A DNA stretch of 64,000 nt. Source: an uncultured Eubacteriales bacterium. GTDB lineage: Bacteria > Bacillota > Clostridia > Lachnospirales > CAG-274. This document shows positions 1 through 43,679 of this stretch, in pieces. Under the pieces are notes generated by a model, which saw nothing but the letters and a program-made list of their open reading frames with translations, was not told where the DNA came from and did no database searches. A program made the position numbers and the translations under genes. Within the stretch, counting starts at the first letter, position 1. Every line of letters begins with the position of its first letter. The DNA lies in assembly GCA_902469905.1 (NCBI GenBank), contig CABREJ010000004.1, positions 108,554 to 172,553 of the forward strand. The letters run 5' to 3'.

Positions 1-2551
1 AGATATTATTATTTTTGTAATACTTTTCTAAATAATTATAATATTTATCTGAAATTTTCTTTTCTTCAACTTCTTTTTTAACCCAGTCTTTCAAATCACA
101 TTGCATAATGTAATGATAAAGCTGAAAATAAGATGTAAATGTTCCTATATCATTCACATATTTTGTAGCATTTTTTATTGAATTTAAGTGGGCTATATTA
201 TTTCTATACCTAACAAATACATTAAAATTCTTATTAATTTTACTATAAATTTTCATATTTTTTTGTATATATTGATTTTTTTTACTTGTATATTCACCAA
301 AAAAATCATTTTGTAATAAATATTTAGTAAACAAAAAATATTGAGCAGGTTGTAACGGTTTATCTGGTTTAATTTTGTAAAGCTTTTCAGGTTGTTCAGG
401 TTTTAATTTTTCGTATAATTCAGTCTTATAAAGCTCTGAATCTCTCTCAATACAATGTACTGCAATAACATATCTTGAATTAACATTTACTAAATTTTTA
501 GTAAGAATGTAAAGAATAGTCAAATAAAGAGTAACTATTGCCTGTTTTTTAGCTTTATCTTCTTTCTCTTCTTTGCTTTTTGCTCTTTGCTTTACATTTA
601 AAAAGTCGCTATAGTCAATGCCAGTAATTATTTCAGAAAGCTCTCTGACCCATTCAGTTTTGCCTATTCCGTCACTTAATCCACAAGATTTATAATACCT
701 TTCAAGCTGTTTATCAGGCAAAGTACCAAGCACAAATTTTATAACATTTGTATTTGAGGCAAATTTTCTAACATTTGTAGGATTACTATATTTTATTAAA
801 TAAATAAATCTATTTGACTTGATAACATTTTTAATAATAAAATTTCTAAAATCTTTTTTTGCGTTTTTATTATCCTTTTGATAAATATAAGTATTAAAAA
901 TGACATCTATATTACTATTTTCAATGCTGGAATCTTTCATAAGTATGCTAATAGCATCTTTATACATTTCCTTTTCCACATTTTTATTGTCCAAAGGTCT
1001 TTTCATACGAGCAAAACTATGAATTTCTTTTAATCTTAAACAAATATCTTTGCTTTCATTAAAAAACTTGTATTCTTCCATAAATTCACACTTTAGGCTC
1101 ATTTCTTCCATAACCTCAATAAAACTTCTTATATTATCAAACTTATTTATAAGTGTTGTCAAAAGGTCATTTATTTCTTTTCCATCTAAAAATAAAGTGA
1201 CAAAATACATCAATTTGCAGAAATAATCAGCATTATCTTCTAATTTTTGTTCACCTATTTTTTCAAATTCAACCCCATTCCAATTTGTAATATCATTATC
1301 TTGACTAAATATTCTTCTATTAGATAATAACTTTGTCAAGGCTTTAATTTGTCTATTTAGCTTTTTCCAAACCCAATCTGCCTCAGCCTTATATATATCA
1401 TCTTTTTTATAGTCATATATAGCCCCACGCAATTTACTTACAATATCATCTATTCTATCCTTTTCCTTGTTTACATATAAATCATATATAATAAAATCAA
1501 TAAGTGTAAATAACTTTGAACGCACTGAGTCATATCCCTGTTCTTTTATATAGCTTGCATAATCAATATCAAGTATATATTCTCTTATTTTCTTAATAGA
1601 AAATCCCATATTTTTATGATTTTTAGATATAAGGAAATTGTAATAGTCCTGTACTAATTTATTTTTATCTAATTTTAAATCATTACATAATATTTGAATA
1701 TTAACTTTGTTTTTTTCTATAAAATTTCCATTTATATCTTCAATTTTTTCATTATAAAAGCTATCTAAAGTTGATTTAAATTCATTATGTAATTGGCTTA
1801 GGTTATATAACCAAGAATTAGAAATTTGCTCTACACCTTCAAATTTAGCTCCTTTAAAATGAAAACAAAATTGTCTTAAACTGCCCAATAAGCAGAGCAT
1901 ATCAAAAATATCTTTTTTATCTTTTAATTCATTTTTATTCTTATAAAAAACATTTCCAAAATATCCTAATCTATTTCCGTTTTCTATAAATTTATCTATA
2001 TTTTCATTTTGTTTTACTAAATTTTTATTAATAAAGTCCTCATAGCTATTTAGTGTTGATGCATAACCTATTAAGTCCTTTTCATCATCACTATTATCTC
2101 TTTCAAGATTGCCTAAGGCATATACAATATTGTTGACATACACTGACAATATTTTTTCAATATCAAGTATGTTATATATTAGCTGAATATGAATATTATC
2201 ATTAAAGTTTTCATTAAAAAATACTTTTTCTAATTTATCTTTACGCTGAATTAAATCCATACCCATTCGTTTTTGAGATACTTGAGTATTTGCATATTGT
2301 TTCTTTTTATTAATAGTATTGATTCCTCTCTTGGTACCTACTACATTAATTATGCCAGTTTCTTTTTCAACACCTACAACATCATAGACCGGCTTATCTA
2401 TATTAATATTTTGAACTTCATTGTTTTTAATTATCTTTTCAACAACAGCATCATTTCCTCTACCAAATGATGTCATTATTACATCATCATCTTTTAAAAA
2501 AGCTGACTTAACCCCTAATGCCTTTGCTCGTGATTTTCTTTTTTCAGTCAT
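1..2551 (-). CDS. cas13d: Cas13d (type VI-D CRISPR effector), C-terminus beyond window start; ORF-track missed it because no in-window stop
   Basis: Own translation from ATG at 2551 (RBS GGAGTG upstream) gives MTEKRKSRAKALGVKSAFLKDDD... continuous to window edge; recognisable Cas13d blocks: HEPN1 RxxxxH (LRQFCFH), KLMYFVTLFLDGKEINDLLTTLINKFDNIRSF (near-identical to RfxCas13d from memory), HEPN2 RNNIAHLN then SYFQLYHYIMQ near position ~150. Confidence 0.85.
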   Translation of the reverse strand, partial: MTEKRKSRAKALGVKSAFLKDDDVIMTSFGRGNDAVVEKIIKNNEVQNINIDKPVYDVVGVEKETGIINVVGTKRGINTINKKKQYANTQVSQKRMGMDLIQRKDKLEKVFFNENFNDNIHIQLIYNILDIEKILSVYVNNIVYALGNLERDNSDDEKDLIGYASTLNSYEDFINKNLVKQNENIDKFIENGNRLGYFGNVFYKNKNELKDKKDIFDMLCLLGSLRQFCFHFKGAKFEGVEQISNSWLYNLSQLHNEFKSTLDSFYNEKIEDINGNFIEKNKVNIQILCNDLKLDKNKLVQDYYNFLISKNHKNMGFSIKKIREYILDIDYASYIKEQGYDSVRSKLFTLIDFIIYDLYVNKEKDRIDDIVSKLRGAIYDYKKDDIYKAEADWVWKKLNRQIKALTKLLSNRRIFSQDNDITNWNGVEFEKIGEQKLEDNADYFCKLMYFVTLFLDGKEINDLLTTLINKFDNIRSFIEVMEEMSLKCEFMEEYKFFNESKDICLRLKEIHSFARMKRPLDNKNVEKEMYKDAISILMKDSSIENSNIDVIFNTYIYQKDNKNAKKDFRNFIIKNVIKSNRFIYLIKYSNPTNVRKFASNTNVIKFVLGTLPDKQLERYYKSCGLSDGIGKTEWVRELSEIITGIDYSDFLNVKQRAKSKEEKEDKAKKQAIVTLYLTILYILTKNLVNVNSRYVIAVHCIERDSELYKTELYEKLKPEQPEKLYKIKPDKPLQPAQYFLFTKYLLQNDFFGEYTSKKNQYIQKNMKIYSKINKNFNVFVRYRNNIAHLNSIKNATKYVNDIGTFTSYFQLYHYIMQCDLKDWVKKEVEEKKISDKYYNYLEKYYKNNNI

Positions 2552-2830
2552 TATAATCACTCCTCTACTTCCCATTATATTTTATACATAACACCTTCAA
2601 CATTAATTTCGTCATAAAACATTTATTATTACTATTTAATTGTATTTTAATACATTTTATCAATTATTTCAATATATTTTTTGTTTTTTCAAGTTTTTAT
2701 TTACATATCAAACAGTCAACATATTAACTAATTTTTTGCACAAAAAAAGAGCCTAAAAAAGCTCATTTTTTCTAATTCCAATTATATGACAAGTCATCTT
2801 CAACCTCAATAGAAACGGTTTGTCTGTATA

Positions 2831-2933
2831 GAACTACACCCATGCTATTTAACAAGGGTGTAGTTCTTATCAACTACATCAGATTAAAGAGGGTTGAGTT
2901 TTAGACCCATGTTATTTAACAAGGGTGTAGTTC
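2831..2933 (-). CRISPR. Mini CRISPR array: canonical 36-nt DR (2898-2933), 31-nt spacer (2867-2897), degenerate terminal DR (2831-2866); transcribed toward cas13d
   Basis: Minus-strand DR GAACTACACCCTTGTTAAATAACATGGGTCTAAAAC has the Cas13d-type ends GAACTACACCC...GGGTCTAAAAC; second copy GAACTACACCCTTGTTAAATAGCATGGGTGTAGTTC differs in last 8 nt. Confidence 0.75.
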
Positions 2934-3077
2934 CTCAAACTGCACAAAGGACAGCTTGAATTAATTAAATTATATATCACTTTTTAACAGAAGTCAACAT
3001 TTTTTAGCATCAACTAAACAATTTAAGTTTTGTTAAGTTTTTTCTTTTCAATATTCACCCACTACTGTTTTAAATAA

Positions 3078-3100
3078 GGACGAGCAATACTCGCCCCTAC
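3078..3100. repeat. Degenerate member of dispersed palindromic GGACGAGC-loop-GCTCGCCCCTAC repeat family, in CRISPR leader-side region
   Basis: aataaggacgagcaatactcgcccctacaat matches 30450-30474 copy. Confidence 0.5.
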
Positions 3101-3120
3101 AATATTAATATACATACAAA

Positions 3121-3155
3121 AGACTGCTGCAATTGCAACAGTCTTTTACTTTAAA
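3121..3155. terminator. Hairpin terminator between array region and pgi 3' end
   Basis: aagactgctgcaattgcaacagtctttt stem-loop with T-tract; RC has T-tract too. Confidence 0.5.
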
Positions 3156-3163
3156 CATTTTTA

Positions 3164-4504
3164 TTATTTTAATCTAGCCTCAAGTTCAGCCTTTCTTTCT
3201 TCATATCCAGGCTTACCTAAAAGAGCAAACATATTCTTCTTATAAGCCTCAACACCTGGCTGGTCAAATGGATTAACACCTAACATATAGCCACTAATAG
3301 CAAGAGCCTTTTCAAAGAAATAAACAAGCTGACCAAAATGATAAGCATCAGCCTTTTCAATTTCAATAACCATAGTAGGTACGCCACCGTCAATATGAGC
3401 AAGATATGTACCACCATAAGCCTTAGAATTAACATACTGAATACTCTTGTCAGCAAGGAAATTAAGACCATCAAGATTTTCAGCATCAGCCTCAATCACA
3501 ATATCCTTCTTAGCCTTATCAACCCACAAAACAGTTTCAAAAAGGTTTCTTGAGCCGTCCTGAATAAACTGACCAATAGAATGTAAATCAGTTGAGAAAT
3601 TAGCACTTACAGGGAAAATACCTTTCTGGTCCTTACCCTCTGACTCAGCATAAAGCTGCTTGTACCACTCGCCAAACATAGTAAGAGAAGGCTCATAGTT
3701 TGCAAGTATTTCAATAGCCTTGCCCTTTCTATATAATATATTTCTTAAAGCTGCATACTTTAAGCAATCATTATTCATAAGGTCATCATTTTTGTACTGA
3801 GTTGCAGCATCAGCAGCACCCTGCATAACAGCATCAACATCAATGCCAGCAGCAGCCATAAGAAGAATACCTACAGGAGTAAGTACAGAAAATCTACCGC
3901 CAATGTCATCAGTAATTACAAATGTTTCATAACCTTCCTTGTCAGCAAGGGACTTCAAAGCACCTCTTGCCTTGTCAGTTGTTGCAAAAATTCTTTCCTT
4001 AGCACCCTCTTTGCCGTACTTATCTTCAATCATCTTTTTGAAAATTCTAAAAGCAATAGCTGGTTCAGTAGTTGTACCAGACTTAGAAATAACATTAATA
4101 GAAAAATCTCTATCCCCAATCATTTCAATAATGTCACTTAAATAATCTGAACTAATGCTGTTACCAACAAAATAAATATCAGGTAAACCTGGGTGCTTTT
4201 TGTTGTTGTAATTATTGCCGTTAATAAAGTCAAGAGCAGCTCTGCCACCAAGATAAGAGCCACCAATACCAATAACAACAAGAACTTCACTATTAGACTG
4301 AATTTTCTTAGCAGCAGCCTTCATTCTAGCAAATTCTTCCTTGTCATAGTCAAAAGGAAGATTAACCCAGCCAATAAAGTCGTTGCCAGCCCCCTTGCCA
4401 GAATATAAAAGCTCACTAGCCATTTTAACAGCAGGTTCAATCTTAGGAAGTTCGTCCTCTCTAACAAAATTGTTTACACCGTTTAATTTTAATGTAATGC
4501 CCAT
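3164..4504 (-). CDS. pgi: Glucose-6-phosphate isomerase
   Basis: 446 aa, typical Firmicutes-size PGI, conserved GIGGS/LGG motifs region recognisable. Confidence 0.9.
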
Positions 4505-4652
4505 TTTATGTATACCTCCATTATATAATTTATTTACTTAATACAAGTATACCACAGCTTAGCAATATTTTCCATACATTTTTAACAATTTTTATAAGTT
4601 TTTTATCAAATATTTATACAATTTTTGCAAATATGTGTATTATTTTGTCATT

Positions 4653-5315
4653 TTATCTGTTATTTTCTCTTTCCATCTTGCTATAAACACAGCCACAATA
4701 GTCCTGTCTGTATAAATTATATAACCTTGATAGTTCTATTGACCTTTTGTAACCGTTCTTCTTTTTAAAGTCAGATATTAAATATTCCACACCATATTCC
4801 TTGCCAAGGCGTGTACCAATTTCATTTAACCAGTCTGCATTTTTATATGGACTAATAGATAGTGATGTTGTGTAATAGTCAAACTTGTTTTGTGAGGCAT
4901 AAATGGCAGCCTCTTTCAATCTTAACTCATAACAGCTATAACATCTTTCCCCGCCCTCTGGCAAGCTCTCCCTGCCCTTTGCCATAGCATAAAAACTTTC
5001 AGGGTCATACTTGCCCTCTACAAATTTGACAGCATTGTTTAAAGGAAAGGCTTTTAAAAATTTCAATTCCTCATTTACTCTTTTTTTATACTCATCTTCA
5101 TAAGAAATATTAGGATTGTAAAAAAACACAGTAATGTCAAAATAATCATTTAAGTATTCTAATACATAAGAATTGCAAGGAGCACAACAAATATGCAAAA
5201 GCAAACTAGGTCTTTTGTTATCTTTCTTCAACTGTTCTAGCAATTTATCTAATTGTTTTTGATAATTAATTTTGTTCATATTATCACCTTTATTTACACT
5301 AAAAAACTGCCCCAT
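4653..5315 (-). CDS. queH: Epoxyqueuosine reductase QueH (DUF208)
   Basis: LLLHICCAPCNSY and C-terminal CYSCYELRL Cys motifs; ~210 aa. Confidence 0.7.
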   Translation of the reverse strand: MGQFFSVNKGDNMNKINYQKQLDKLLEQLKKDNKRPSLLLHICCAPCNSYVLEYLNDYFDITVFFYNPNISYEDEYKKRVNEELKFLKAFPLNNAVKFVEGKYDPESFYAMAKGRESLPEGGERCYSCYELRLKEAAIYASQNKFDYYTTSLSISPYKNADWLNEIGTRLGKEYGVEYLISDFKKKNGYKRSIELSRLYNLYRQDYCGCVYSKMERENNR

Positions 5316-5337
5316 ATAGGACAGTTTTTATTTTATA

Positions 5338-6741
5338 TTATACTGGATAAACCTTGTTATTTACATCAGCTAAATTTGGGTCAATACCAAACTTCTGAGC
5401 CTGTCTAAACTTAAAGAAGTCTAAAGCCTGCTGAGGGAAAAGAGCATAACTTAATACATCTTCTTCCTTCTCCTTGTAGTCCTTCATTTCAGCCTCAATC
5501 TTTTCAAGCTCTGGAGCAATATTGTCAGCTGGTCTGCAAGTAATAGGTTCTTCATCACCTATTATCTTCTTTCTTATTTCTTCAGAAATAGCAACAGGAG
5601 TTCTGCCGTACATACCTCTTACAATATCCTTAGTTTCCTTAGGAACCATTTTGTATCTTTCACCCATAAGCACATTTAAAACAGCCTGAGTACCTACAAT
5701 CTGGCTAGAAGGAGTAACAAGTGGAGGATAACCAAGGTCAGCTCTAACTCTAGGGATTTCCTTAAGAACCTCGTCATACTTATCTTCAGCCTTAGCAGCC
5801 TTTAACTGGCTAACAAGGTTAGAAAGCATACCACCAGGAACCTGATAAAGGAGAGTAGCAATATCAACAGCAAGCATCTTAGGGCTTAAAAGACCACTTT
5901 CAATAGCTTCTTCTCTAATTGGCTTAAAGTAATCTGAAATTTCCTTTAAAAGGTTTTCATCAAGACCTGTGTCATATTCAGTACCCTTTAAAGCAGCAAC
6001 CATAACTTCTGTAGCTGGCTGAGCAGTACCCATACTAAGAGGTGACATATCTGTATCAATAATATCAGCACCAGCCTCAATAGCCTTCATATAAGTCATT
6101 GATGCAACACCACTAGTATAGTGACTGTGAACCTGAATAGGAAGGTCAACTTCTTCCTTAATAGCCTTAACTAAGTCATAAGCTGGCTGAGGAAGTAAAA
6201 GACCAGCCATATCCTTAATACAAATAGAGTCAGCACCTAAATCTCTGTAAGTCTTAGCTAAATTAACATAATATTCAAGAGTATGAACATCACTTAAAGT
6301 GTAGCTAATAGCAAGCTGAGCGTGAGCACCATCTTCCTTTTTAACAGCCTTAACAGCAGTTTCAAGATTTCTTGCATCATTAAGAGCATCAAATATTCTT
6401 AAAATATCAATACCGTTTTCAATACTTTTTCTAACAAATGTATCAACAACATCATCTGCATAATGTCTGTAACCTAAAATATTCTGACCTCTTAAAAGCA
6501 TCTGAAGTTTAGTGTTTTTAAAAGCTGAACGGAACTTTCTAAGTCTTTCCCAAGGGTCTTCCTTAAGGTATCTAAGGCAAGAGTCAAAAGTAGCACCGCC
6601 CCAAACTTCCATAGCACCAAAACCAACTTTATCCATTTTATCTAAAATAGGGAGCATATCCTCTATTCTCATTCTTGTAGCAATTAATGACTGCTGACCA
6701 TCTCTTAATGTACAGTCACAAATTTTAATAGGCTTTGCCAT
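5338..6741 (-). CDS. Oxaloacetate decarboxylase alpha-like / transcarboxylase 5S-type carboxyltransferase subunit (no biotinyl domain)
   Basis: N-term KICDCTLRDGQQS pyruvate-carboxyltransferase (TIM barrel) signature. Confidence 0.8.
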   Translation of the reverse strand: MAKPIKICDCTLRDGQQSLIATRMRIEDMLPILDKMDKVGFGAMEVWGGATFDSCLRYLKEDPWERLRKFRSAFKNTKLQMLLRGQNILGYRHYADDVVDTFVRKSIENGIDILRIFDALNDARNLETAVKAVKKEDGAHAQLAISYTLSDVHTLEYYVNLAKTYRDLGADSICIKDMAGLLLPQPAYDLVKAIKEEVDLPIQVHSHYTSGVASMTYMKAIEAGADIIDTDMSPLSMGTAQPATEVMVAALKGTEYDTGLDENLLKEISDYFKPIREEAIESGLLSPKMLAVDIATLLYQVPGGMLSNLVSQLKAAKAEDKYDEVLKEIPRVRADLGYPPLVTPSSQIVGTQAVLNVLMGERYKMVPKETKDIVRGMYGRTPVAISEEIRKKIIGDEEPITCRPADNIAPELEKIEAEMKDYKEKEEDVLSYALFPQQALDFFKFRQAQKFGIDPNLADVNNKVYPV

Positions 6742-6756
6742 TTATATAACCTCCCT

Positions 6757-7983
6757 TTATCTATAAAGTGATAAGAAAATACCAGATGCAATAGCTGAAC
6801 CAATTACACCAGCAACATTAGGACCCATTGCGTGCATAAGAAGGTAGTTGTTAGGATTTTCTTCCTGACCAACCTTCTGGGCAACTCTAGCAGCCATAGG
6901 CACTGCTGAAACACCTGCCGCACCAATAAGTGGATTAACCTTACCACCTGATAACTTACACATAATCTTACCAAATACTAAACCTGCTGCAGTTGAGAAA
7001 GCAAAAGCAGCAAGACCAAGAACTAAAACCTTAATAGTTTCAAGCTGTAAGAACTGGTCTGCTCTAGTAGTAGCACCAACACTAACACCAATGAAAATAC
7101 TAATAATATACATCATAGCCTCTGATGCGTGAGTAGCAAGTTTCTGAGTTACGCCTGACTCTCTAAAAAGATTACCTAACATAAGCATACCAATAAGTGA
7201 TGCAGTATCAGGAAGAATAAGAATAACAAGCATAGCTGTAATAATAGGGAAAAGAATTTTTTCTCTTTGAGATACAGTTCTTAACTGCTCCATTTTAATC
7301 ATTCTTTCCTCTTTAGTTGTAAGAGCTTTCATAATAGGTGGCTGAATAATAGGTATAAGAGCCATATATGAATAAGCTGCAACAGTTACTCTTGATAAAA
7401 GATGAGGAGCAAGCTGTGTAGTAGTAAATATAGCAGTTGGACCATCAGCACCACCAATGATACCAATTGAGGCAGCCTCTTGAGGAGTAAAGCCTAAAGC
7501 TAAAGCACCAAGAAAGGCAGCAAAAATACCAAACTGAGCAGCAGCACCTAAAAGTAAACTCTTAGGATTAGCAATAAGAGGACCAAAGTCAGTTAAAGCA
7601 CCAACACCCATAAAAATAAGTGGAGGGAAAATACCTAACTCATCACCCTGAAAAATATACCAAAGCAAGCCACCGTTTGAAGTAGTTTCACCAGAAACCT
7701 GTGCTAAGTATGGCATCTGAGATGATGGGTCAACACCAATTACATTTATTAATTCCTTAACAGGCTCAGCCATAAGTCCACTGTTTGGCAAGTTTGCAAG
7801 GAGCATACCAAAGGAAATAGGCAAAAGCAAAAGTGGCTCAAACTTTTTAGCAATAGCAAGATACATAAAAAACAATGATACTGCTATCATAATAAGGAAT
7901 TTATAATTATCTCCAACAAAGAACTGTGCAAAGCCTGAATTGGCGAAGAAATTAAGCACAGCCTCTCTTAACATATCCAACAT
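6757..7983 (-). CDS. Na+-translocating decarboxylase beta subunit (OadB/GcdB/MmdB family)
   Basis: 408 aa polytopic membrane protein with conserved beta-subunit layout. Confidence 0.85.
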   Translation of the reverse strand: MLDMLREAVLNFFANSGFAQFFVGDNYKFLIMIAVSLFFMYLAIAKKFEPLLLLPISFGMLLANLPNSGLMAEPVKELINVIGVDPSSQMPYLAQVSGETTSNGGLLWYIFQGDELGIFPPLIFMGVGALTDFGPLIANPKSLLLGAAAQFGIFAAFLGALALGFTPQEAASIGIIGGADGPTAIFTTTQLAPHLLSRVTVAAYSYMALIPIIQPPIMKALTTKEERMIKMEQLRTVSQREKILFPIITAMLVILILPDTASLIGMLMLGNLFRESGVTQKLATHASEAMMYIISIFIGVSVGATTRADQFLQLETIKVLVLGLAAFAFSTAAGLVFGKIMCKLSGGKVNPLIGAAGVSAVPMAARVAQKVGQEENPNNYLLMHAMGPNVAGVIGSAIASGIFLSLYR

Positions 7984-8003
7984 AATTTATGCCTCCTAAG
8001 AGA

Positions 8004-8393
8004 TTATTTAGCAACAGTAATAAGTACATCACCTGAATTAACAGCCTGACCCTTAGTTACATTAATTGCTGTAACTGTACCAGCAACAGGAGTTACAATG
8101 TCGTTTTCCATCTTCATAGCCTCTAAAACAACTACAACCTGATTAGCAGCAACGCTGTCACCAACATTAACCTTAATATCTAAAATATTACCAGGCATTG
8201 GAGCAGTAACCTTTTCTCCTTCACCAGTTGCAGCAGGAGCTGAAGCCTGAGGAGCTGGAGCAGGTGTTGCTGGAGTTGCAGCAGGAGCTGAAGCCTGAGG
8301 AGCTGCTGGAGCTACAGGAGCTTGAGATGCACCTAATTCCTCAACCTGAACATCGTAAGTATTGCCATTTACTGTTATTCTATAATTTTTCAT
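8004..8393 (-). CDS. Biotin carboxyl carrier subunit
   Basis: Ala/Pro-rich linker and C-terminal EAMKMEN biotinylation motif. Confidence 0.8.
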   Translation of the reverse strand: MKNYRITVNGNTYDVQVEELGASQAPVAPAAPQASAPAATPATPAPAPQASAPAATGEGEKVTAPMPGNILDIKVNVGDSVAANQVVVVLEAMKMENDIVTPVAGTVTAINVTKGQAVNSGDVLITVAK

Positions 8394-8405
8394 TTTAAAT
8401 TCCTC

Positions 8406-8774
8406 CTATAAAATACTACCATTTTGCTGTTCGTTAATTGCTTCCTTGTTCCAAGAGCTAACTCTCTTTAATCGTCTTACAACAAGCTTATCAGGGCCAA
8501 TATTGTTGCCCTTAGCACACTCACTAGCTGCAATAGCTGCTGTAATAACTGCAATTAATTCAGCATCATCATTTACCTTAACTTCTTCTACTGCCTTAGG
8601 CTCTACAGCAGGTGTTGTATTAACAACAGGCTTTTCAACCTCTGCCTTTTTGCTACTTGCCACCTTACCAAAAATAAAGAGAACAAAAGATATAAAGATA
8701 AGCACAGCAAATACAGTACAAAAGCCTAAAATAGTAACCATTAAACCTTCAGCTAACCATTCCATATATATCAC
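8406..8774 (-). CDS. Decarboxylase gamma subunit (OadG-like)
   Basis: N-terminal single TM (LMVTILGFCTVFAVLIFISFVLF) then Ala/Glu-rich region typical of OadG. Confidence 0.6.
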   Translation of the reverse strand: MIYMEWLAEGLMVTILGFCTVFAVLIFISFVLFIFGKVASSKKAEVEKPVVNTTPAVEPKAVEEVKVNDDAELIAVITAAIAASECAKGNNIGPDKLVVRRLKRVSSWNKEAINEQQNGSIL

Positions 8775-8777
8775 CTC

Positions 8778-10157
8778 TTAGAATTCAATGCTTGCGTGCT
8801 TTTTAGCAACAGTGTTTTCTCTCTTTGTTAAAAGCATTTCAAGAGCAATTAAAATTCTCTTTCTAGTAGTTGCTGGAATAATAATACCATCAATATAACC
8901 GTCACTAGCAATCTGATAAGGAGCAGAAACCTTGTTGTACTCATTTTCGTCATAACCCATAACCTTAGTAGCAGCGTCTTTGCTTAAAAGAGCAATATTA
9001 GCTGATGGCCAAGAGTAAACAATATCTGCACCAATATGCTTAGAGTTCATAAGAAGATAAGCATTGCCAATACAATTTCTAACAATTACATTTATCTTAG
9101 GTACAGTAGCATTAGCAAAGGCAAAAGCAAGCTTAGCACTATACTTAATAATATCGCTCTGGTCATTAATGTGAAGTGTACTATAACCTTCAACATCAGT
9201 GAATGTAATTATAGGAATATTAAAAGCATCACAAATATTAATAAATTCACCAGTCTTTTTAATACCGTCAATATCAATAAGACCACAATTTGCAATTACA
9301 CCAGTTGTAATACCGTCAAGTCTAACAAAACCAGAAATAATGTTTTTAGCATAATTTTCACTAACTTCTGTAAACTTAAAGTTATCAGCAATTGATATAA
9401 TAATCTTTCTCATATCAATTTCAGTTACATTGTCTTCTGGAACTACAGTATTAAGAGCCTCATCAATTCTGTTTAAGTCATCAGTTGATGTAACAGCATT
9501 ATAGTCCTCAAGGTTGTTAGAAGGCATTAAATCAACAATTTCCTGAGCCTTAACAAAGCAATCATTGTCAGTTTCACACTCAAAGTGAGCAAGACCCTTT
9601 TGAGAAAGTGCATCTGCACCACCAATTGTTTCATAAGTTGACGCCTTACCATCTAAGCCAGCATAAACAGATGGACTTAATAAGAACATCTTAGCATTTT
9701 CCTTAGACATAATAACAAAATCAGATAAAGAAGGTAAAAAGGCACTAACGCCAATACAATCACCTAACACAATGCTAATCTGAGGAATAACACCACTAGC
9801 TGCTGCCTGACTTTTAAACATAACACCGTAAGCATCAAATGTGTCAAGACCATCTTCAAGGGCAACACCCTTAGAATCCATAATCGCTACTACAGGACAG
9901 CCCATTTTAAGAGCAAGCTCGTAAACATTAGCAATTTTATTAGCGTGCTTAGTATTAACTACACCTTCCTGAGAGAAAGCATAGACAAGCTTTCCATTAA
10001 TAGTACCGTAGCCTGTAACAACGCCGGCATCTGTATTAAATGCACCAAGCTCTACAAAGCTGTTTTCGTCAAAAAGCTTTTCAAGTCTTTCCTTAGCTAA
10101 AGAAGGAGCTTCCTGCATTTTGGCAATAAGCTCGTTGATTTCATCAAATCTGCTCAT
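8778..10157 (-). CDS. Acyl-CoA carboxyltransferase (12S / MmdA-GcdA-type alpha subunit)
   Basis: 459 aa carboxyl transferase domain architecture, operonic with beta/gamma/biotin carrier. Confidence 0.8.
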   Translation of the reverse strand: MSRFDEINELIAKMQEAPSLAKERLEKLFDENSFVELGAFNTDAGVVTGYGTINGKLVYAFSQEGVVNTKHANKIANVYELALKMGCPVVAIMDSKGVALEDGLDTFDAYGVMFKSQAAASGVIPQISIVLGDCIGVSAFLPSLSDFVIMSKENAKMFLLSPSVYAGLDGKASTYETIGGADALSQKGLAHFECETDNDCFVKAQEIVDLMPSNNLEDYNAVTSTDDLNRIDEALNTVVPEDNVTEIDMRKIIISIADNFKFTEVSENYAKNIISGFVRLDGITTGVIANCGLIDIDGIKKTGEFINICDAFNIPIITFTDVEGYSTLHINDQSDIIKYSAKLAFAFANATVPKINVIVRNCIGNAYLLMNSKHIGADIVYSWPSANIALLSKDAATKVMGYDENEYNKVSAPYQIASDGYIDGIIIPATTRKRILIALEMLLTKRENTVAKKHASIEF

Positions 10158-10305
10158 TTTACTTCTACCTCCTACAAAATTTTCAAAAAATTTCGATAAT
10201 TTACTTGTAATTATATATAATTTATTGTACTATAAAGACAAAATAATTTAAAATATTATTTATGATATACTAATTATAAGCCTTTCCCTATAAGGAGGAA
10301 TTTTA

Positions 10306-11211
10306 ATGGATTTAAAGGAATTTGAGTATGTTCTCGCTATAAATGAGGAGCGAAGTTTTTCAAAGGCAGCTAAGAAACTTTTTATATCTCAGCCATCTTT
10401 GAGCCAGTATATTAATAGACTTGAAGGTCAGCTAGGTGTTACAATTTTTGATAGAAACACTATACCTCTTTCACTTACATTTGAAGGAGAGCTTTATATT
10501 AATTCTGTAAAGTCAATTATGAATATTGTCACAAATATGCGTAAGAGCTTTGAAGATATTTCTAACTTAAAAATAGGTAGAGTTAATATTGGTCTTACAC
10601 CATCTAAGGCAAACAATCCTTTGCCTGCTATTTTACCAGTTTTTAAGGAAACATATCCTGGTGTTGAGCTTATTATTACTGAAAGAACATCATCAGAGCT
10701 TGAAGATATGCTTACTAGAGGTCAAGTTGATGTCTGTATGCTTAATTTGCCAATAAAGTCAAAGGGTATTGAGTATGAGCCAATTATGAAAGAAAATATT
10801 TATATTGCTGCTCCTCCAGACTATTGCCCACCAAATGGCGTTGACACAAGTGCTAGATACCCTCAGCTTGATATAAACGATATTGCTAATGAGCAGTTTA
10901 TCCTTCTTCACCCTAGTCAGAGATTAAGACAAATTGCTGATACAATGTTTAACAACGACAATATTAAACCAAAGATTTTACTTGAAACTGCAAGTATCGA
11001 AACTTCTCTAAGACTTTCTGCTGCTGGTATGGGCTTTAGCTTTGTTCCAGAGTCTGCAGTTAGATTTGCTGGATTGACTAATCCACCTAAATATTACAGA
11101 TTGCCACACGACTTAAATTGGACTCTTGTAATTGCTTACAGAGAAGGTGCTTACAAAACAAAAGCAGTAAAAGCCTTTGCAGAAATTGCTAAAAAGGTTA
11201 TTACAGAATAG
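10306..11211 (+). CDS. LysR family transcriptional regulator, divergent from decarboxylase operon
   Basis: N-terminal HTH (FSKAAKKLFISQPSLSQYI) plus LysR substrate-binding domain. Confidence 0.85.
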   Translation: MDLKEFEYVLAINEERSFSKAAKKLFISQPSLSQYINRLEGQLGVTIFDRNTIPLSLTFEGELYINSVKSIMNIVTNMRKSFEDISNLKIGRVNIGLTPSKANNPLPAILPVFKETYPGVELIITERTSSELEDMLTRGQVDVCMLNLPIKSKGIEYEPIMKENIYIAAPPDYCPPNGVDTSARYPQLDINDIANEQFILLHPSQRLRQIADTMFNNDNIKPKILLETASIETSLRLSAAGMGFSFVPESAVRFAGLTNPPKYYRLPHDLNWTLVIAYREGAYKTKAVKAFAEIAKKVITE

Positions 11212-11219
11212 GAGTATTT

Positions 11220-11822
11220 ATGTTGACCGTTCTTGATTTAGAATTTAATCAAGCCTATGATTTTGGAGATGACAGCAGTCAGGCTGAACCAAACCCAAAG
11301 TGTAGATTTGAAATTATACAAATAGGTGCTGTAAAAGTTGACGACAATTTTAAGGTTCACGATAAATTTAATATTTATATTAAACCAACCCTCTACCCTA
11401 GAATACACCCTTATGTTGAAAAAATAACTGGGTTTAAAACAGAGGATTTCAGCTTTTCTCCACGATTTAAAGAGGCTTATTCAAAGTTTAGATATTTTTT
11501 AGGCAATGATACAGTCCTCGGTACTTGGGGCTATAGTGATATTAAAGCCCTTTTTAGAAATATTACTTTTAACGATATTATGGAACCACCTATTATTATA
11601 AATTATGTGGATATTCAGAAAATTGCTACTAAGTATCTTAAGTACAATAGAGGTGGTGCTATTGGTCTTAAAAATGCTGTTGACGCACTTAATATAACTA
11701 TTGATGAAAATAAACATTTTCATAATGCTTTAGGTGATGCTTACTATACAGCTAAAGTCCTTGAAGCAATTAATCCTAAGGAATTGCCTGTTAGAATATT
11801 TAATTCTAAACATATAAAATAA
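11220..11822 (+). CDS. DEDDh 3'-5' exonuclease (DnaQ-like)
   Basis: LDLEFNQ (Exo I) and HNALGDAYYTA (Exo III H-x4-D) motifs. Confidence 0.7.
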   Translation: MLTVLDLEFNQAYDFGDDSSQAEPNPKCRFEIIQIGAVKVDDNFKVHDKFNIYIKPTLYPRIHPYVEKITGFKTEDFSFSPRFKEAYSKFRYFLGNDTVLGTWGYSDIKALFRNITFNDIMEPPIIINYVDIQKIATKYLKYNRGGAIGLKNAVDALNITIDENKHFHNALGDAYYTAKVLEAINPKELPVRIFNSKHIK

Positions 11823-11853
11823 CCGTTAGTATTTGCACTAACGGTTATTTTTG
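11821..11853 (+). terminator. Rho-independent terminator of exonuclease gene
   Basis: aaccgttagtatttgcactaacggtt then ATTTTTG. Confidence 0.6.
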
Positions 11854-11859
11854 TTTAAG

Positions 11860-11890
11860 CACAAAAAAGAGGTGCATTTCTGCACCTCTA
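11860..11890 (-). terminator. Rho-independent terminator of 11898..12452 gene
   Basis: agaggtgcatttctgcacctct hairpin; RC followed by TTTTTT. Confidence 0.6.
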
Positions 11891-11897
11891 ATATTAT

Positions 11898-12452
11898 TTA
11901 CACTTCTTCACCATTAATTTCAATATAAAATTCATCAAAATTAACACTTACACCATTAGTTCCTGTTCCTTCTAAGTAAACCCCCAAAGTCAACTTACCA
12001 GCAGTTTCTTCTGTAATTTCAACTTCTTTATGTTGATAAGCACTATTCCAACCCAATACTACAGAACCAGCGTTTAATATAGTATTTCCATTTTCATCTT
12101 TTAAAAATGCTCCACAAGCAGAAACTGCCTCTTCAACACGATTTTTGTCACCACCACAACTAGCTGCAAAACTAATTGAAACTACATCGCCCGGTTCCAC
12201 ATCAAAGTCTGATACAAAAGTACAAGACTCACTATGCTGACCATCGGCAGTTATATTTAAACAAGAAACATTCTCTAAAACTTGTCCTACAGTAAATTTT
12301 GTCCTGCTTTCTTGAGTACAAGTCCAACTACCCAAACTATTTGCAAAAGCACTGCTAAACATTGAAATTACTAAAATAATAGTTAAAATTAAAAATCCTA
12401 AACACTTTTTATTTTTCATAGGCTTTACCTCCTCAACACAAAACAAATACAT
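11898..12452 (-). CDS. Secreted hypothetical protein (signal peptide)
   Basis: N-terminal KKCLGFLILTIILVISMFSSAFA signal-like. Confidence 0.5.
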   Translation of the reverse strand: MYLFCVEEVKPMKNKKCLGFLILTIILVISMFSSAFANSLGSWTCTQESRTKFTVGQVLENVSCLNITADGQHSESCTFVSDFDVEPGDVVSISFAASCGGDKNRVEEAVSACGAFLKDENGNTILNAGSVVLGWNSAYQHKEVEITEETAGKLTLGVYLEGTGTNGVSVNFDEFYIEINGEEV

Positions 12453-12809
12453 TTATTGTTACATATACATTAAGTGCACCTTTTGTATACTGTAAGTATA
12501 ACAGATTTTATGTATAAAATCTATAGACAAATTCTATTATATTTCGACAAAAAATGCACCTTTTGTGATAATTTTACCTAAAATCAAAAACTTACTTGCT
12601 ATATTTTCAATTATTTGTTTTATAAATAATAAGTTTTTTGCTTAAAACACAAAAATATTATTATGTTTGTATTTTGTATTGCAAAACTTAATATATAATT
12701 AGCTACATATTCTCTTGTTTGCATTAATACTGTTTATCTTTTTTATATATTTTAATTAATCAGAATAATTAAAGACAGCTTTAAGGACGAACAGCTAAGA
12801 ACTATCAAT

Positions 12810-36321: not shown

Positions 36322-36771
36322 TCAATTTATACTATCCATAATTTTATCAACGAGCATAACATCTGCCGGAAGCCACTGAACATCATATAAACTATCCTTT
36401 GTCAGCCACTTTGCCGCTTCAGCCTCCAGCAATTTCAATTCACCGTCAATAACCTCACACCAGAAGCAATCCATAGATAAATGAAATGTTGGATAATCAT
36501 ATTCAATAGTATCTATCAAATCACCTACTATGATTGTTGCTTCCAATTCTTCTTTTATTTCTCTAACAAGGGCCTCTCGTGGTGTCTCACCAGTTTCTAT
36601 TTTTCCTCCTGGAAATTCCCACTGTCCTTTAAATTCTCCATATCCTCTAGCTGTTGCAAATATTCGTTTCTTTTCCTGTATTGAATCGCAAATAACAGCA
36701 GCTACAACTCTTATAGTTTTCATATCTGTCCTAAATAAATTCAAGCATTTTCTTTTCAATGCAGAATTCAT
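36322..36771 (-). CDS. Nudix hydrolase
   Basis: Nudix box GGKIETGETPREALVREIKEELEA (GX5EX7REUXEEXGU). Confidence 0.8.
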   Translation of the reverse strand: MNSALKRKCLNLFRTDMKTIRVVAAVICDSIQEKKRIFATARGYGEFKGQWEFPGGKIETGETPREALVREIKEELEATIIVGDLIDTIEYDYPTFHLSMDCFWCEVIDGELKLLEAEAAKWLTKDSLYDVQWLPADVMLVDKIMDSIN

Positions 36772-37408
36772 ATCCCATCTTTTTTAATCCAACTTTGCCA
36801 AAGTCTACCGCAATAGATGTTCCTTCGATTGAAGCAATAGTTCCAGTTCCAAATGTCTTATGTTTTACTTGCTTACCCACAATATCAGCAGGAATAACAA
36901 CGGGTGGTTTTGGCTCTGGCTTAGGAATAACTGGTGGAACATACGTAGATTTGCTACCCGTCTTTTTCTTAGCAGTAACCATCTTCATATACTGTTCATC
37001 CACATCTTTACCACGTGCTTTGAAATCTTCAATATCCTTAAATACAAACATATCTGGTTTCTTTACATCATTATCAGGCACCGGGCGAATAGGGAACATC
37101 CACACCTTTCTTGGCACTCCGTCCTCACCTGGTTGAGTTTCTGTATATGGCTTATCAACCAGTTCAATTCTTCCGCAGTAAATATATTCACCTGCGTCCA
37201 TTACTTCAAATAGGTGAACATCAACACCGTTATATCCACATTCCGCAAGAGTAGAATTTTGTGCCCAGTTAATATCCTGGTCTCCATTTTTTCCCATTCC
37301 TGTGTAATGAAGAACGCCACCTATCCATTTGTCATGATATATTCCTTTTGTATAATCAGACACAATAACCAGAGTATTCGTTGTCTTTGAGCGGCACATA
37401 CCGCTCAT
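36731..37408 (-). CDS. SRA (YDG)-domain protein, modified-cytosine binding-like, with Pro-rich linker and small C-terminal domain; overlaps Nudix gene start by ~40 bp
   Basis: HYTGMGKNGDQD ~ UHRF1 YTGSGGRD; NSTLAEC ~ NRALALNC; EYIYCGRIELV ~ YDGIYKVV; RKVWMFPIRP ~ GFLVWRYLLRR (from memory of SRA fold motifs). Confidence 0.55.
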   Translation of the reverse strand: MSGMCRSKTTNTLVIVSDYTKGIYHDKWIGGVLHYTGMGKNGDQDINWAQNSTLAECGYNGVDVHLFEVMDAGEYIYCGRIELVDKPYTETQPGEDGVPRKVWMFPIRPVPDNDVKKPDMFVFKDIEDFKARGKDVDEQYMKMVTAKKKTGSKSTYVPPVIPKPEPKPPVVIPADIVGKQVKHKTFGTGTIASIEGTSIAVDFGKVGLKKMGYEFCIEKKMLEFI

Positions 37409-39783: not shown

Positions 39784-40593
39784 CTATTCAACTATTCTTG
39801 TAATTACATCTATTCCCTTTTCTTTTGCATAACTCACAACTTCACTAAATACCTTTGATTGTTCCTTGCTCATTTCAACTGGAGGAATTGCTATCTCTAA
39901 AAATTTTTTTCCACCTTTATCTAAAGCGTATTGTTCCCCTAAGTATGTCTTTCTATAAAACTTAGATAAATCATCAACATATTGTATTAAAGTTCTCTTC
40001 AAAGTATTTGCATTTTTATAACTTTTAGCTGTAACATCTATACTTTTAATACTAGTAACTGATGATAACCAATGAACGCCATCCTTTTTAAATGCCTCTA
40101 CAAATTTATCTATAGTCTGGAAATTATTACACATACCTCCCAAAGCTTTTTCAATTTCCCAACCTCTATCAAATACTTTCATTGCCCATACTCCAGTTTT
40201 AACATAATCATCAGCTTTTGAAAGTATTTTTGTTCCGCTTTTTATTGTTTTTGCTACATATGATCCTGGTGCATAAGGTACAAGTAAAGCAGCAGCATCC
40301 CATGCTAAAAAGCCAAAATTAGCTAAACTAGGATCATTTACAAAGTCAACAAAACTCCATCCTAAACTAAATAAATCAATAACAGTTTCAACTGGTACTT
40401 CACCTGAAGTGTCTAAATACTTAGTAGGATTATTATAACAATAAGTATACCAATTAACCCCATCTCTAATCGGATCCTCAGTAATAAACCTACCGCTTTC
40501 ACTGTCATAATACCTATTCCTTAGATATATAAGTCCGCTCTCACTATCAAGATATTCACCACAATAGCCAAAAGGAACATCATTTACATTAGA
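39784..40593 (-). pseudogene. Orphan RHS C-terminal toxin module (no start; begins exactly at IS inverted repeat 40595-40623)
   Basis: Own translation of 40593->40183 gives SNVNDVPFGYCGEYLDSESGLIYLRNRYYDSESGRFITEDPIRDGVNWYTYC..., near-identical to RHS 41637..43679 residues around PxxxxDPxGL, continuing in frame into ORF 39784..40182 with a different toxin tip. Confidence 0.65.
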
Positions 40594-41133: not shown

Positions 41134-41640
41134 CTAGTTTTCAACAATAGAAAGTGATTCTGGATTATATTTTAAATCAAAAATTATTCGTTCATTCTTA
41201 TTAGTTAGGTATATAAATATTTTATTATTATAATAATTTTTATCAAAATAAGCTCTACTTGTACCTTTATCCATAGGCAAGTATGGAAATCTTTGTTCTT
41301 TTACATGAATTAATTTATTTATTTTTCTACCCTGAGATATAACAACATTGTATCTATTAAAGTCAATTTCAGAAAAATCAATTTCATCCAACGAAAAAGT
41401 AGGACTATTTAATGGATTTGGTTTTTCATCAGCATAGTGCAAAACATCCCACCAAACATATGGTATTTTATCATTAGAAAAATTGATATTATATTCAATA
41501 GATTTATATTCAAGAAGTTTTACTTGATATTCTTTATATTTAAGAAAATGATCTATTATTATAAAAGCCACTATAATTATAATTATTACTATACATAAGA
41601 TAATAGAACATATAAACCTATTTGGCTTTACTGTAATCAT
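41134..41640 (-). CDS. Putative membrane-anchored immunity protein of RHS toxin
   Basis: Starts 4 bp inside RHS stop; N-terminal TM helix; position typical for RhsI. Confidence 0.45.
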   Translation of the reverse strand: MITVKPNRFICSIILCIVIIIIIVAFIIIDHFLKYKEYQVKLLEYKSIEYNINFSNDKIPYVWWDVLHYADEKPNPLNSPTFSLDEIDFSEIDFNRYNVVISQGRKINKLIHVKEQRFPYLPMDKGTSRAYFDKNYYNNKIFIYLTNKNERIIFDLKYNPESLSIVEN

Positions 41641-43679
41641 GCTACTCCCTCCGTTTTTTCATAATATATAGGTTTTCCATTCAGGTCATACGCATTTAAA
41701 AGTCTATAATTATTAATATTTTTTAAATCATTTACATTTAACGTTTGACCATCTATATTTGAATATACAGTAATAGTATCCATACTCTTTGTATATTTAA
41801 TAAAACCCAGCTCACTTCTTTTTCCATTTCTTAACCATGAAGCAAAATAATCTGTACCAGAATTTAAAATTGGCTTGCCTGTTAATACTGACCATCTCAT
41901 ACTACCATCCCAGCCATACACATTTTTAACATTTTGGTATTTAGCAAACTCAAAAGCTAAATTTTCAGTACTATAATCTTGGTGTGCAGAATTACAAGAA
42001 TTTAATATAATTGTATTGATATTTTTTTCTTTTAAATCTTTGACATGTACACAATCTCCCTGATAATTACGACTTTCAGTAACTAATGGTTCACCATTCA
42101 TAATAATTGCTTGTGGATTAGCATGAAAAAATAATTCTACTAATTCTATTTCTGAACCTTTATTGTCCATATTATCCCATTCTTCTTTAAACTGTTTAGC
42201 ATTTGAAATCATTTTTATATATACAGTTTTTCCCTCAAGTTCAAGTTCTTTTTTCCTTTTATAAGCTCTATCCCCCAAAGAAGCATTGTTTTTATCTGCT
42301 TCATTATAAAAAATATATACATCCTCTAGTCCCAATAAATCCCAAAACATCACAGGATTACCACCACAATAACTATACCAATTAACCCCATCTCTAATCG
42401 GGTCCTCAGTAATAAACATGCCGCTTTCACTGTCATAGTACCTATTCCTAAGATAAATCAATCCACTTTCACTATCAAGATATTCACCACAATAGCCAAA
42501 AGGAACATCATTTACATTAGAGCTTTCAACCTTATTGCCATAAGCATCATACCTAGTAATATTTTCAGCTACAGTTCCCCTGTTTTGTTGAACAAGGTTA
42601 CCATGACCATCATACATATATGCTCGTCTGTCATCATCTGTTAACAACTGATGTCCTCTTGTATAGCCTCTTAATATTGTATTAGACGAATTTGCCTCTG
42701 CAACTATATTGTCAACGTCCCATATCTGCTGAGTGAGTACTCCGTCCACAGTCTTTGACATTCTGTAATGATTTGGTAAATAAGCATAAGTCGCAGTTGT
42801 ACCATTACTTTTTTTATATTCTGTCAGCTCATTAAGTCTGTCATAAGTAAATATTTCATAACTCGTGCTATCGTCTGTATTAGCATCATTAATACTTATA
42901 GTGAACTTATTGTCAATATTCTGATTATACTTAGCCTTACTTATCTGATTACCGTTATTATCATAGCTATATTCGGTTATTGTATAATTAACTAAATCCG
43001 ATATTTCATTGGATTTATCTATACTGTAATTCTCTCTTTTTTCTTTAAGTAATCTGTTATTTTTATCATAAGTATATTTAACATAATAATCATCATAGCC
43101 ATCTTCGCTGCTATATACATCAGTTCTGTTTCCAAATATATTGTAATAATAACTGGTATAATACTCTATGCCACTTTCATTTCTGCGTTCACCTGTCAAT
43201 TGGTTAGATGAATTATACTCATATCTTACAATCCTGCCATTTGTATCAGTAGCCTTGTTAATATTACCATCATAGTTATAAACATAACTGTACTTTGTAT
43301 CTAAACTGCCACTGCCGTCATTATTTATCACAGTAAGCATATTGGCATTATTGTATGTATATGTTCTTGTACAGTTATTATCCTCTACCTTAGTAATATT
43401 ACTGTTATTGTCATAGGTGTAATTAGCAGTAAATTTAGTTGTACTATCTCCTTCGGAGCTGACGGAAAGTAGTCTGCTAAGTCCGTCATAGGTATACTTT
43501 TGAATTTTATATGTAGTATTACCCTTTTTATATACATTTTGGGTATTTCTGCCCCATGTATCGTATATTCTCGCTATACTGAAATTTCCTGTTGTTTCAG
43601 TTGCTACAAGACCTAAATTGTTGTATGTATAGCTTTGACTTACATTGCTGTTTACTGATGTCTTTACTCCTCCTGTCAT
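41637..43679 (-). CDS. RHS/YD-repeat protein, 5'-truncated (680 aa), with C-terminal polymorphic toxin domain
   Basis: YD repeats (YTYDNNSNITKV, YTYNNANMLTV, YEYNSSNQLTGE...), core-end motif FITEDPIRDGVNWYSYCGGNPVMFWDLLGL, then ~225-aa variable tip. Confidence 0.8.
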   Translation of the reverse strand: MTGGVKTSVNSNVSQSYTYNNLGLVATETTGNFSIARIYDTWGRNTQNVYKKGNTTYKIQKYTYDGLSRLLSVSSEGDSTTKFTANYTYDNNSNITKVEDNNCTRTYTYNNANMLTVINNDGSGSLDTKYSYVYNYDGNINKATDTNGRIVRYEYNSSNQLTGERRNESGIEYYTSYYYNIFGNRTDVYSSEDGYDDYYVKYTYDKNNRLLKEKRENYSIDKSNEISDLVNYTITEYSYDNNGNQISKAKYNQNIDNKFTISINDANTDDSTSYEIFTYDRLNELTEYKKSNGTTATYAYLPNHYRMSKTVDGVLTQQIWDVDNIVAEANSSNTILRGYTRGHQLLTDDDRRAYMYDGHGNLVQQNRGTVAENITRYDAYGNKVESSNVNDVPFGYCGEYLDSESGLIYLRNRYYDSESGMFITEDPIRDGVNWYSYCGGNPVMFWDLLGLEDVYIFYNEADKNNASLGDRAYKRKKELELEGKTVYIKMISNAKQFKEEWDNMDNKGSEIELVELFFHANPQAIIMNGEPLVTESRNYQGDCVHVKDLKEKNINTIILNSCNSAHQDYSTENLAFEFAKYQNVKNVYGWDGSMRWSVLTGKPILNSGTDYFASWLRNGKRSELGFIKYTKSMDTITVYSNIDGQTLNVNDLKNINNYRLLNAYDLNGKPIYYEKTEGVA

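Follow-up and report, generated by a model that had tools for sequence, protein, structure and literature searches.

A subtype VI-D CRISPR locus, comprising a cas13d gene and a one-spacer mini-array, lies at the left end of a 64,000-nt stretch of DNA from an uncultured Eubacteriales bacterium (contig CABREJ010000004.1, positions 108,554 to 172,553); this whole stretch is called the window below, and its features are collected in Table 1. As an earlier, sequence-only reading of the window had stated, the cas13d frame is missing from the list of open reading frames (ORFs) because that list skips frames that run off the window end. Translation of the minus strand from 2551 to 1 yielded 850 codons with zero stops, in agreement with the unbroken Cas13d frame described in that reading, and the product matched the NCBIfam equivalog model NF038189 (VI_Cas13d) at 1032.8 bits (cutoff, 150) over profile positions 1-849 of 882. 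The PADLOC Cas13d model gave a score of 806.7 bits. The top solved structure was that of EsCas13d (6e9e, E=1e-151), and further matches were obtained to the UrCas13d-type structure 6iv8, to DjCas13d (9m30, E=6e-133) and to CasRx (9m31). Pfam has no Cas13d model, so that the 0 Pfam matches for the protein are uninformative. Judged by its sequence, the product of the frame is a bona fide Cas13d, the type VI-D effector.

Both HEPN R-x4-H motifs reported in the earlier reading are present, and each aligns to the catalytic residues of EsCas13d (numbering from bioRxiv 10.1101/314401). In a 10-sequence clade alignment, R226, H231, R783, N784 and H788 were invariant, as was D456-F471 within a block (KLMY..T.FLDGKEINDLLTTLINKFDNI.SF) that had been described as nearly identical to RfxCas13d (CasRx) and is indeed identical to it at 28 of 32 positions. 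Leftward extension, which had been suggested as a way to recover the C terminus, led to a 227-kb contig (L001) that is 100% identical to window positions 1-12551. On this contig, cas13d occupies positions 10001-12688 as an unbroken 895-aa ORF that ends at a TGA stop 45 codons past the window edge, and neither a frameshift nor a stop was seen in the HEPN2 region. The full protein (P0001) is 100% identical to the part encoded in the window and is present in NCBI, ENA and Logan assemblies. Its length fits the compact size criterion for Cas13d relative to Cas13a-c; the median size of Cas13d is 928 aa (PMC5935466). Between strains, the ratio of nonsynonymous to synonymous substitution rates (dN/dS) of cas13d was 0.31-0.52, i.e. 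below neutrality, which indicates that the gene is under purifying selection. An alternative in-frame ATG at 2575 lacks a ribosome-binding site and does not occur in strains L003, L057 and L058.

Table 1. Features of the window (positions refer to the 64,000-nt stretch)
Feature	Position	Strand	Details
cas13d coding sequence, codons 1-850 of 895	1..2551	minus	last 45 codons and stop lie past the window's left edge
HEPN2 catalytic motif R783-N-N-I-A-H788 (RNNIAH, aa 783-788)	188..205	minus	aligned to EsCas13d R849/H854
Family-wide conserved block KLMYFVTLFLDGKEINDLLTTLINKFDNIRSF, aa 446-477	1121..1216	minus	28/32 identical to CasRx KLMYALTMFLDGKEINDLLTTLINKFDNIQSF
HEPN1 catalytic motif R226-Q-F-C-F-H231 (RQFCFH, aa 226-231)	1859..1876	minus	aligned to EsCas13d R295/H300
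Ribosome-binding site GAGGAG	2560..2565	minus	8 nt before ATG at 2551; read from sequence
Candidate sigma-70 promoters for cas13d	2644..2692	minus	TTGAAA-18-AATAAT with TG extension; TTGAAA-17-TAAAAT; consensus scan only
Intrinsic terminator GAGCTTTTTTAGGCTC and T-run, between array and cas13d	2739..2764	minus	hairpin 2764-2749; terminator scan
Terminal (second) 36-nt repeat GAACTACACCCTTGTTAAATAGCATGGGTGTAGTTC	2831..2866	minus	5/36 mismatches to repeat 1, 4 within last 8 nt
Single 31-nt spacer TCAACCCTCTTTAATCTGATGTAGTTGATAA	2867..2897	minus	read from sequence
Functional-type 36-nt direct repeat (repeat 1) GAACTACACCCTTGTTAAATAACATGGGTCTAAAAC	2898..2933	minus	0 chance matches in 100 shuffles
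Array promoter and transcribed leader	2934..2997	minus	TTGACT-17-TATAAT (2997-2969): -35 TTGACT 2997-2992, -10 TATAAT 2974-2969; 11/12 consensus
Island right end	2998..3105	minus	terminator-like hairpin 3096-3082; junction with pgi 3' region ~3105-3114
SRA-ScoMcrA	36731-37408	minus	
CDI-toxin-like gene	39784-40182	minus	
RHS/YD-shell toxin	41637-43679	minus	
DEAD/SNF2-HNH helicase	45145-47457	minus	
RhuM	48846-49922	minus	
HNH	50052-50810	minus	
SLFN-like helicase	50822-52780	minus	
Dcm methylase	52791-54401	minus	
AIPR	54414-56495	minus	
DUF4420	56517-57449	minus	
Z1	57449-60196	minus	
HATPase_c_3	60189-61655	minus	

The array lies on the cas13d strand, 279 nt upstream of the start codon. As had been described, a 36-nt repeat stands directly upstream of the gene, with the same ends as the Es-type repeat GAACTACACCCGTGCAAAAATGCAGGGGTCTAAAAC (taken directly from a locus that encodes a Cas13d with 99% identity to EsCas13d), and is followed by a single 31-nt spacer; the description of the locus as having a one-spacer mini-array holds for this array, but the array is one of two, and the divergence of its second repeat from the first had been overlooked. 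Repeat 1 is predicted to fold with the same dot-bracket as the Es repeat, i.e. a stem of 9 positions with a single mismatch inside it, between single-stranded flanks of 7 nt. Cas13d reads the terminal 8 nt at the 3' end of the repeat base-specifically (bioRxiv 10.1101/314401), and in the window these 8 nt (TCTAAAAC) equal the majority consensus of 12 functional VI-D repeats, among which the last four nt (AAAC) and T29 are invariant.

The array promoter, a strong sigma-70 one, is located 35 nt upstream of the first repeat. The leader end, ...GCAGTTTGAG, abuts this repeat (2934-2941) and resembles the type II-A leader-anchoring motif ATTTGAG (PMC5382924): the window sequence AGTTTGAG agrees with it at 6 of 7 positions, and exact ATTTGAG occurs in the upstream arrays of sister clades, the likeness being a sequence resemblance only. 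All leaders examined end in GCA(G/A)TTTGAG against the first repeat, and the same promoter-leader is found at both arrays in all strains and in the sister clades. A II-A-like leader end fits the II-A affiliation of VI-D Cas1, which belongs to the II-A clade (PMC5935466). The terminator scan returned 4 sites against 0.2 expected; the one that separates the array from cas13d is conserved in L003, L057 and L058. An Rfam scan of positions 2400-3300 returned sub-threshold chance matches only.

Beyond the cas13d stop, immediately outside the left edge of the window (L001 12724-12888), the promoter-leader recurs (91% identity over 105 nt) and precedes a downstream mini-array. The first repeat of this mini-array has lost 5 nt (GAACTACACCCAAATAACATGGGTCTAAAAC); its spacer is 30 nt long, and its terminal repeat, of a second type, is self-closing (GTTTTACTACCCTGTTATTTGACAGGGTAGTAAAAT), so that cas13d lies between two mini-arrays with one spacer each. 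The accessory genes that had been proposed as a check at the extended locus did not appear: among the called genes of the whole window and 10 kb beyond its left end (~71 kb), no Pfam match to Cas1 (PF01867), Cas2 (PF09827) or WYL was obtained. Because cas1/cas2 occur near only 19% of cas13d genes (Yan et al., PMC5935466), their absence, together with that of WYL, is common for the subtype.

Next to the array is pgi (MEI3163756.1, from a gut metagenome-assembled genome (MAG) labelled Lachnospirales/Anaerotignaceae), and we compared contigs with a pgi protein exactly identical to that of the window. These contigs were of four kinds. The site is empty in L053, L055, L056 and 9 more, where pgi is followed by 55 nt and then the DAHP-synthase gene; L054 has the window arrangement; and the islands of the other two kinds are larger, L057 having hicAB, two small ORFs and a 900-aa Cas13d between a 5-spacer and a 3-spacer array, and L058 having MerR and aldo-keto-reductase genes in addition, with its cas13d frameshifted. 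Alignment of the empty L053 with the occupied L054 delimited the island as a 3.77-kb insert between pgi and the DAHP-synthase gene, of which window positions 1-3105 hold ~3.1 kb. The GC content was 24-27% in the three 1-kb bins of positions 1-3000 (24% over cas13d) compared with 32-38% in the nine bins of positions 3001-12000. The locus is thus a strain-variable, mobile-looking, stand-alone VI-D island, placed in a housekeeping intergenic site where sibling strains have no insert. Both island junctions (window 3105-3114; L054 11160-11180) share TATATTAAT, and the sequence TATATCAAT is present at the empty site; a target-site duplication (or microhomology) at the island ends was considered and set aside, TATATTAAT being too short and AT-rich to call.

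Sister clades with Cas13d proteins 53-56% identical to P0001 (P0003, P0004 and P0006; loci L063, L065 and L066) have the order hicAB - small ORFs - array - cas13d - cas1 - cas2 - array. Like the window locus, they have two arrays with the same promoter-leader at each, distinct upstream and downstream repeat variants and self-closing terminal repeats; unlike it, they keep cas1-cas2 directly after cas13d and hicAB upstream. Because the sister clades retain this order, we regard the window lineage as a reduced derivative that lost cas1-cas2. In the scheme suggested by these comparative data, the ancestor would have been arranged hicAB - array - cas13d - cas1 - cas2 - array, the window's lineage would have lost the adaptation genes, the window's strain would also have lost hicAB, and the arrays would have shrunk to one spacer each. 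A hicA/hicB pair upstream of the Cas13d array was located at L057 7484-8358, L058 8893-9756, L063 3125-3927 and L065 3024-3953 and is absent in the window's strain; the association of HicAB with VI-D is conserved across sibling strains and the 55% sister clades. Between hicB and the upstream array, L063 (3916-4119) and L065 (3981-4482) contain tandem units of ~76-90 nt, some with a GGAG-ATG start, and gene calls of 31-39 aa fall in or just downstream of this stretch.

The upstream single spacer differs among L001, L003 and L058 and is also unlike all five spacers of the upstream array in L057, and the last downstream spacer is common to L001 and L003. As the spacers differ between strains, spacer turnover appears to have continued, and it could have proceeded through adaptation proteins supplied in trans or through recombination.

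Taken together, the features above very probably represent a stand-alone VI-D island in which a promoter-leader-mini-array, a terminator, an intact cas13d and a second mini-array provide guided RNA defence with the adaptation genes lost. By homology to EsCas13d and CasRx, Cas13d would bind the repeat stem-loop and the 3' ...GGGTCTAAAAC handle and would trim ~6 nt from the 5' end, giving a CRISPR RNA (crRNA) that starts with CACCCUUGUU and consists of a 30-nt repeat and ~22 nt of spacer. Pairing of this crRNA with a complementary phage or plasmid transcript would then lead the HEPN1/HEPN2 site (R226/H231 and R783/H788) to cleave the target and bystander RNA, and the closed terminal repeat described below would stop Cas13d from loading extraneous crRNA derived from the trailer.

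Several observations weigh against this model, and some of them would be expected if the locus were instead a decaying relic, with a stranded effector, vestigial arrays and immunity gone. The region has no more promoter-like sites than its shuffled versions, and the candidate cas13d promoters, being no better than chance, are therefore weak evidence. The first repeat of the downstream array has its 5-nt deletion in the window's own strain. In the L058 MAG (NCBI GCA_037066465.1, JBAMUU010000023.1; 11257-13341), cas13d is split into ORFs of 145, 340 and 434+ aa, which implies two frameshifts, due either to the gene being a pseudogene or to misassembly of A-rich stretches; the lineage to this extent shows decay. 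Protospacers were not found either: the window spacer, searched as an exact 31-mer and 22-mer, had no match in IMG/VR or JGI metagenomes; five sibling-strain spacers, searched as exact 22-31-mers, had none in IMG/VR; and blastn of 13 spacers from four strains against 50,697 INPHARED phage records gave chance-level AT-rich matches only (E >= 0.1). The repeat itself is absent from JGI metagenomes and IMG/VR. A relic would further account for the lack of cas1, cas2 and WYL within ~71 kb, whereas the sister clades keep cas1-cas2, for one spacer per array compared with 5+3 in L057, and for the fact that most strains lost or never had the island. We nevertheless consider decay improbable, given that the ORF is intact with all four catalytic residues, that dN/dS is below neutrality, and that promoter, leader, terminator and first repeat have been conserved in intact form across strains. 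The presence of a different spacer in each strain points to recent turnover, most described VI-D loci also lack nearby cas1/cas2, and within 3 kb of EsCas13d, whose locus is active in experiments, there is neither a WYL-domain gene nor any other accessory gene. Arrays of a single spacer whose last repeat is mutated resemble regulatory mini-arrays of other CRISPR types, and this likeness, as well as the failure to find an external target in the phage, virus and metagenome collections searched, would suit a lone spacer that guides Cas13d to a host or prophage transcript (regulation or self-targeting) and not to an external invader. Such a role is very unlikely: with up to 6 mismatches allowed, neither the 64-kb window nor 835 kb of related loci contained another match to the spacer. 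A fixed regulatory guide would be expected to stay constant, whereas here the spacer changes from strain to strain in an otherwise conserved locus.

The earlier reading had further proposed a distinct, new ortholog. The protein is distinct, with 39% identity to EsCas13d and 34% to RfxCas13d, but it is not new: all 895 residues of P0001 are identical (895/895) to residues 9-903 of '>GL_4153' in Table S7 of Wei et al., 'Deep learning and CRISPR-Cas13d ortholog discovery' (bioRxiv 10.1101/2021.09.14.460134). GL_4153 is among the 46 metagenome-mined orthologs of that study, which were human-codon-optimised, cloned with full-length repeats and subjected to a knockdown screen in HEK293FT cells (bioRxiv 10.1101/2021.09.14.460134). 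The published form begins 8 codons earlier (MGSRGVII), from the ATG at window position 2575. The study reportedly appeared in Cell Systems in 2023. In the main text and five supplementary files of Wei et al., the repeat is absent, GL_4153 occurs only in the sequence list and the native locus is not described. A full-text literature search gave no match to the repeat or the N terminus in main texts; the N terminus and the conserved block were matched in the Wei et al. supplement. By this identity, the cas13d of the window is already known, and its sequence has been public since 2021. The view that it is a genuinely new, undescribed Cas13d that enlarges the toolbox could draw on the low identities to Es and Rfx, on the next protein clusters being just 53-56% identical, on the lack of a named protein among the listed members of the P0001 database cluster, on its absence from JGI metagenomes and on a best match of 41% among GTDB species representatives, a set that contains neither the source genome nor the 55% sister clade. 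We regard this view as hardly credible in the face of the full-length identity to GL_4153, of the statement by Wei et al. that their orthologs were cloned and screened, of the presence of the sequence in NCBI, ENA and Logan, and of the NCBIfam equivalog model, which would name the protein automatically.

The terminal repeat of the upstream array departs from repeat 1 in a particular manner. Four changes within its last 8 nt turn GGGTCTAAAAC into GGGTGTAGTTC, the exact complement of the repeat's own 5' GAACTACACCC, and the repeat is predicted to fold into a fully closed hairpin of -21.1 kcal/mol compared with -8.0 kcal/mol for repeat 1 (z = -6.7). The positions recognised by the nuclease are altered in the terminal repeat, at 4 of the last 8 nt, and not in repeat 1. 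The same terminal-repeat form is present in L003, L057 and L058. Closure was detected in 9 of the 19 VI-D repeat families scanned, including the CasRx own locus, against a null of ~2.4% per family (binomial tail 3e-6 even with the highest null value), bearing in mind that families with GAACTAC-type ends may share ancestry. Consistent with this result, the array of the Es-type locus, which was read separately, also ends in a self-closing repeat. The native terminal repeats concerned lie at L067 7572-7607 in the Es-type locus (GAACTACACCCGTGCAAAAATGCAGGGGTGTAGTTT) and at L027 ~4550-4590 in the CasRx locus (CAAGTAAACCCCTACCAACTGGTCGGGGTTACTTGT). Across 15 terminal repeats, which were picked for closure, the outer 8-bp helix was 85% paired and 5 of the 8 outer pairs were changed on both sides, i.e. 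in a compensatory manner; as a control, pairing was at most 48% when the partner was slid, and the functional repeats of the same arrays showed 48% pairing and zero compensatory changes.

Because the 3' change removes exactly the 8 nt that Cas13d reads base-specifically, we read it as a probable block on extraneous crRNA: the closed terminal repeat probably prevents crRNA from being made from the trailer. There is a precedent in Cas12a arrays, in which terminal-repeat mutations prevent extraneous crRNA (PMC6610086), a concept that has since been extended, the production of an extra crRNA from the last repeat having been stated for VI-A/C/D (PMC13187072). The window array is like those of Cas12a in its repeat-then-guide layout and in having the last repeat mutated where the nuclease reads it. 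Unlike in Cas12a, the VI-D change makes the 3' handle complementary to the 5' flank of the same repeat and seals the whole repeat in one hairpin. For the repeat-then-guide layout, a self-closing repeat would be the equivalent of what was recently shown for Cas13b, a leader-repeat hairpin. No description of a closed terminal repeat for VI-D was found in the literature searched, and the pattern may be new. Only tentatively do we extend the idea to a general one, namely that a selected, so far undescribed self-closing repeat terminates many VI-D arrays, those of EsCas13d and CasRx among them, and stops the loading of trailer-derived crRNA, with window positions 2866-2831 as a textbook example.

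The main rival to the crRNA-blocking reading is neutral quasi-palindrome correction, in which the closed hairpin is a functionless by-product: template switching at a quasi-palindrome would turn a no-longer-homogenised repeat into a perfect palindrome, which would then spread by recombination. Block substitutions that mirror the repeat's own 5' end are typical of quasi-palindrome template-switch mutation, an established mechanism, and the four substitutions here form one block that is an exact mirror of the 5' end. The downstream terminal repeat of L057 fits the same account, being a hybrid in which the inherited 3' end no longer pairs with the new 5' end and pairing has thus been lost, as does the fact that about half of the VI-D arrays examined are without closure. 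A by-product of this kind does not readily explain why closure recurs in 9 of 19 families against a null of ~2.4%, why 5 of the 8 outer pairs are compensatory with 85% pairing against 48% in functional repeats and at most 48% in the slid control, or why exactly the 8 nt read by Cas13d are removed. Weighing both sides, we hold neutral origin to be a serious possibility that stops short of being probable.

Compared with EsCas13d ([Eubacterium] siraeum; PDB 6e9e/6e9f), the window protein belongs to the same family with the same domain order and has both HEPN dyads aligned at 39% identity overall. The repeat ends GAACTACACCC...GGGTCTAAAAC are identical with the same predicted fold, there is no adjoining WYL gene at either locus, and both have an array that ends in a self-closing repeat. 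The window protein differs in being 59 aa shorter, mostly at the N terminus (its residue 5 is aligned with residue 58 of Es); the loop and stem of the repeat are TTGTTAAATAACAT in the window against GTGCAAAAATGCAG in Es; and the window locus has two one-spacer arrays, whereas the Es-type locus has one nine-spacer array downstream. RfxCas13d/CasRx (Ruminococcus sp. XPD3002; PDB 9m31, 9lzt) likewise belongs to the same family, at 34% identity, and a self-closing repeat (CAAGTAAACC...GGTTACTTGT) terminates its native array too, but the window protein is 72 aa shorter and the CasRx repeat is different (CAAGTAAACCCCTACCAACTGGTCGGGGTTTGAAAC).

As a candidate tool, the window Cas13d adds nothing, since it is already public and screened. 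The value of the locus resides in the native context left undescribed by the mining paper, i.e. a minimal cassette of promoter, one spacer, effector, promoter and one spacer, which offers a compact natural system for asking by what means stand-alone type VI loci keep their memory up to date and avoid making useless extra crRNA. If the closed terminal repeat is functional, it would provide a simple design element for synthetic Cas13d arrays. The details of the native locus and the terminal-repeat pattern are modest additions.

Elsewhere in the window, positions 36700-61700 of the minus strand hold a large defence and toxin island. PADLOC also returned pAgo/SIR2-type matches in the window, which were not traced to an ORF. 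The HATPase_c_3/Z1/DUF4420/AIPR/Dcm set at the right of the defence and toxin island was matched by PADLOC as MzaB/MzaC.

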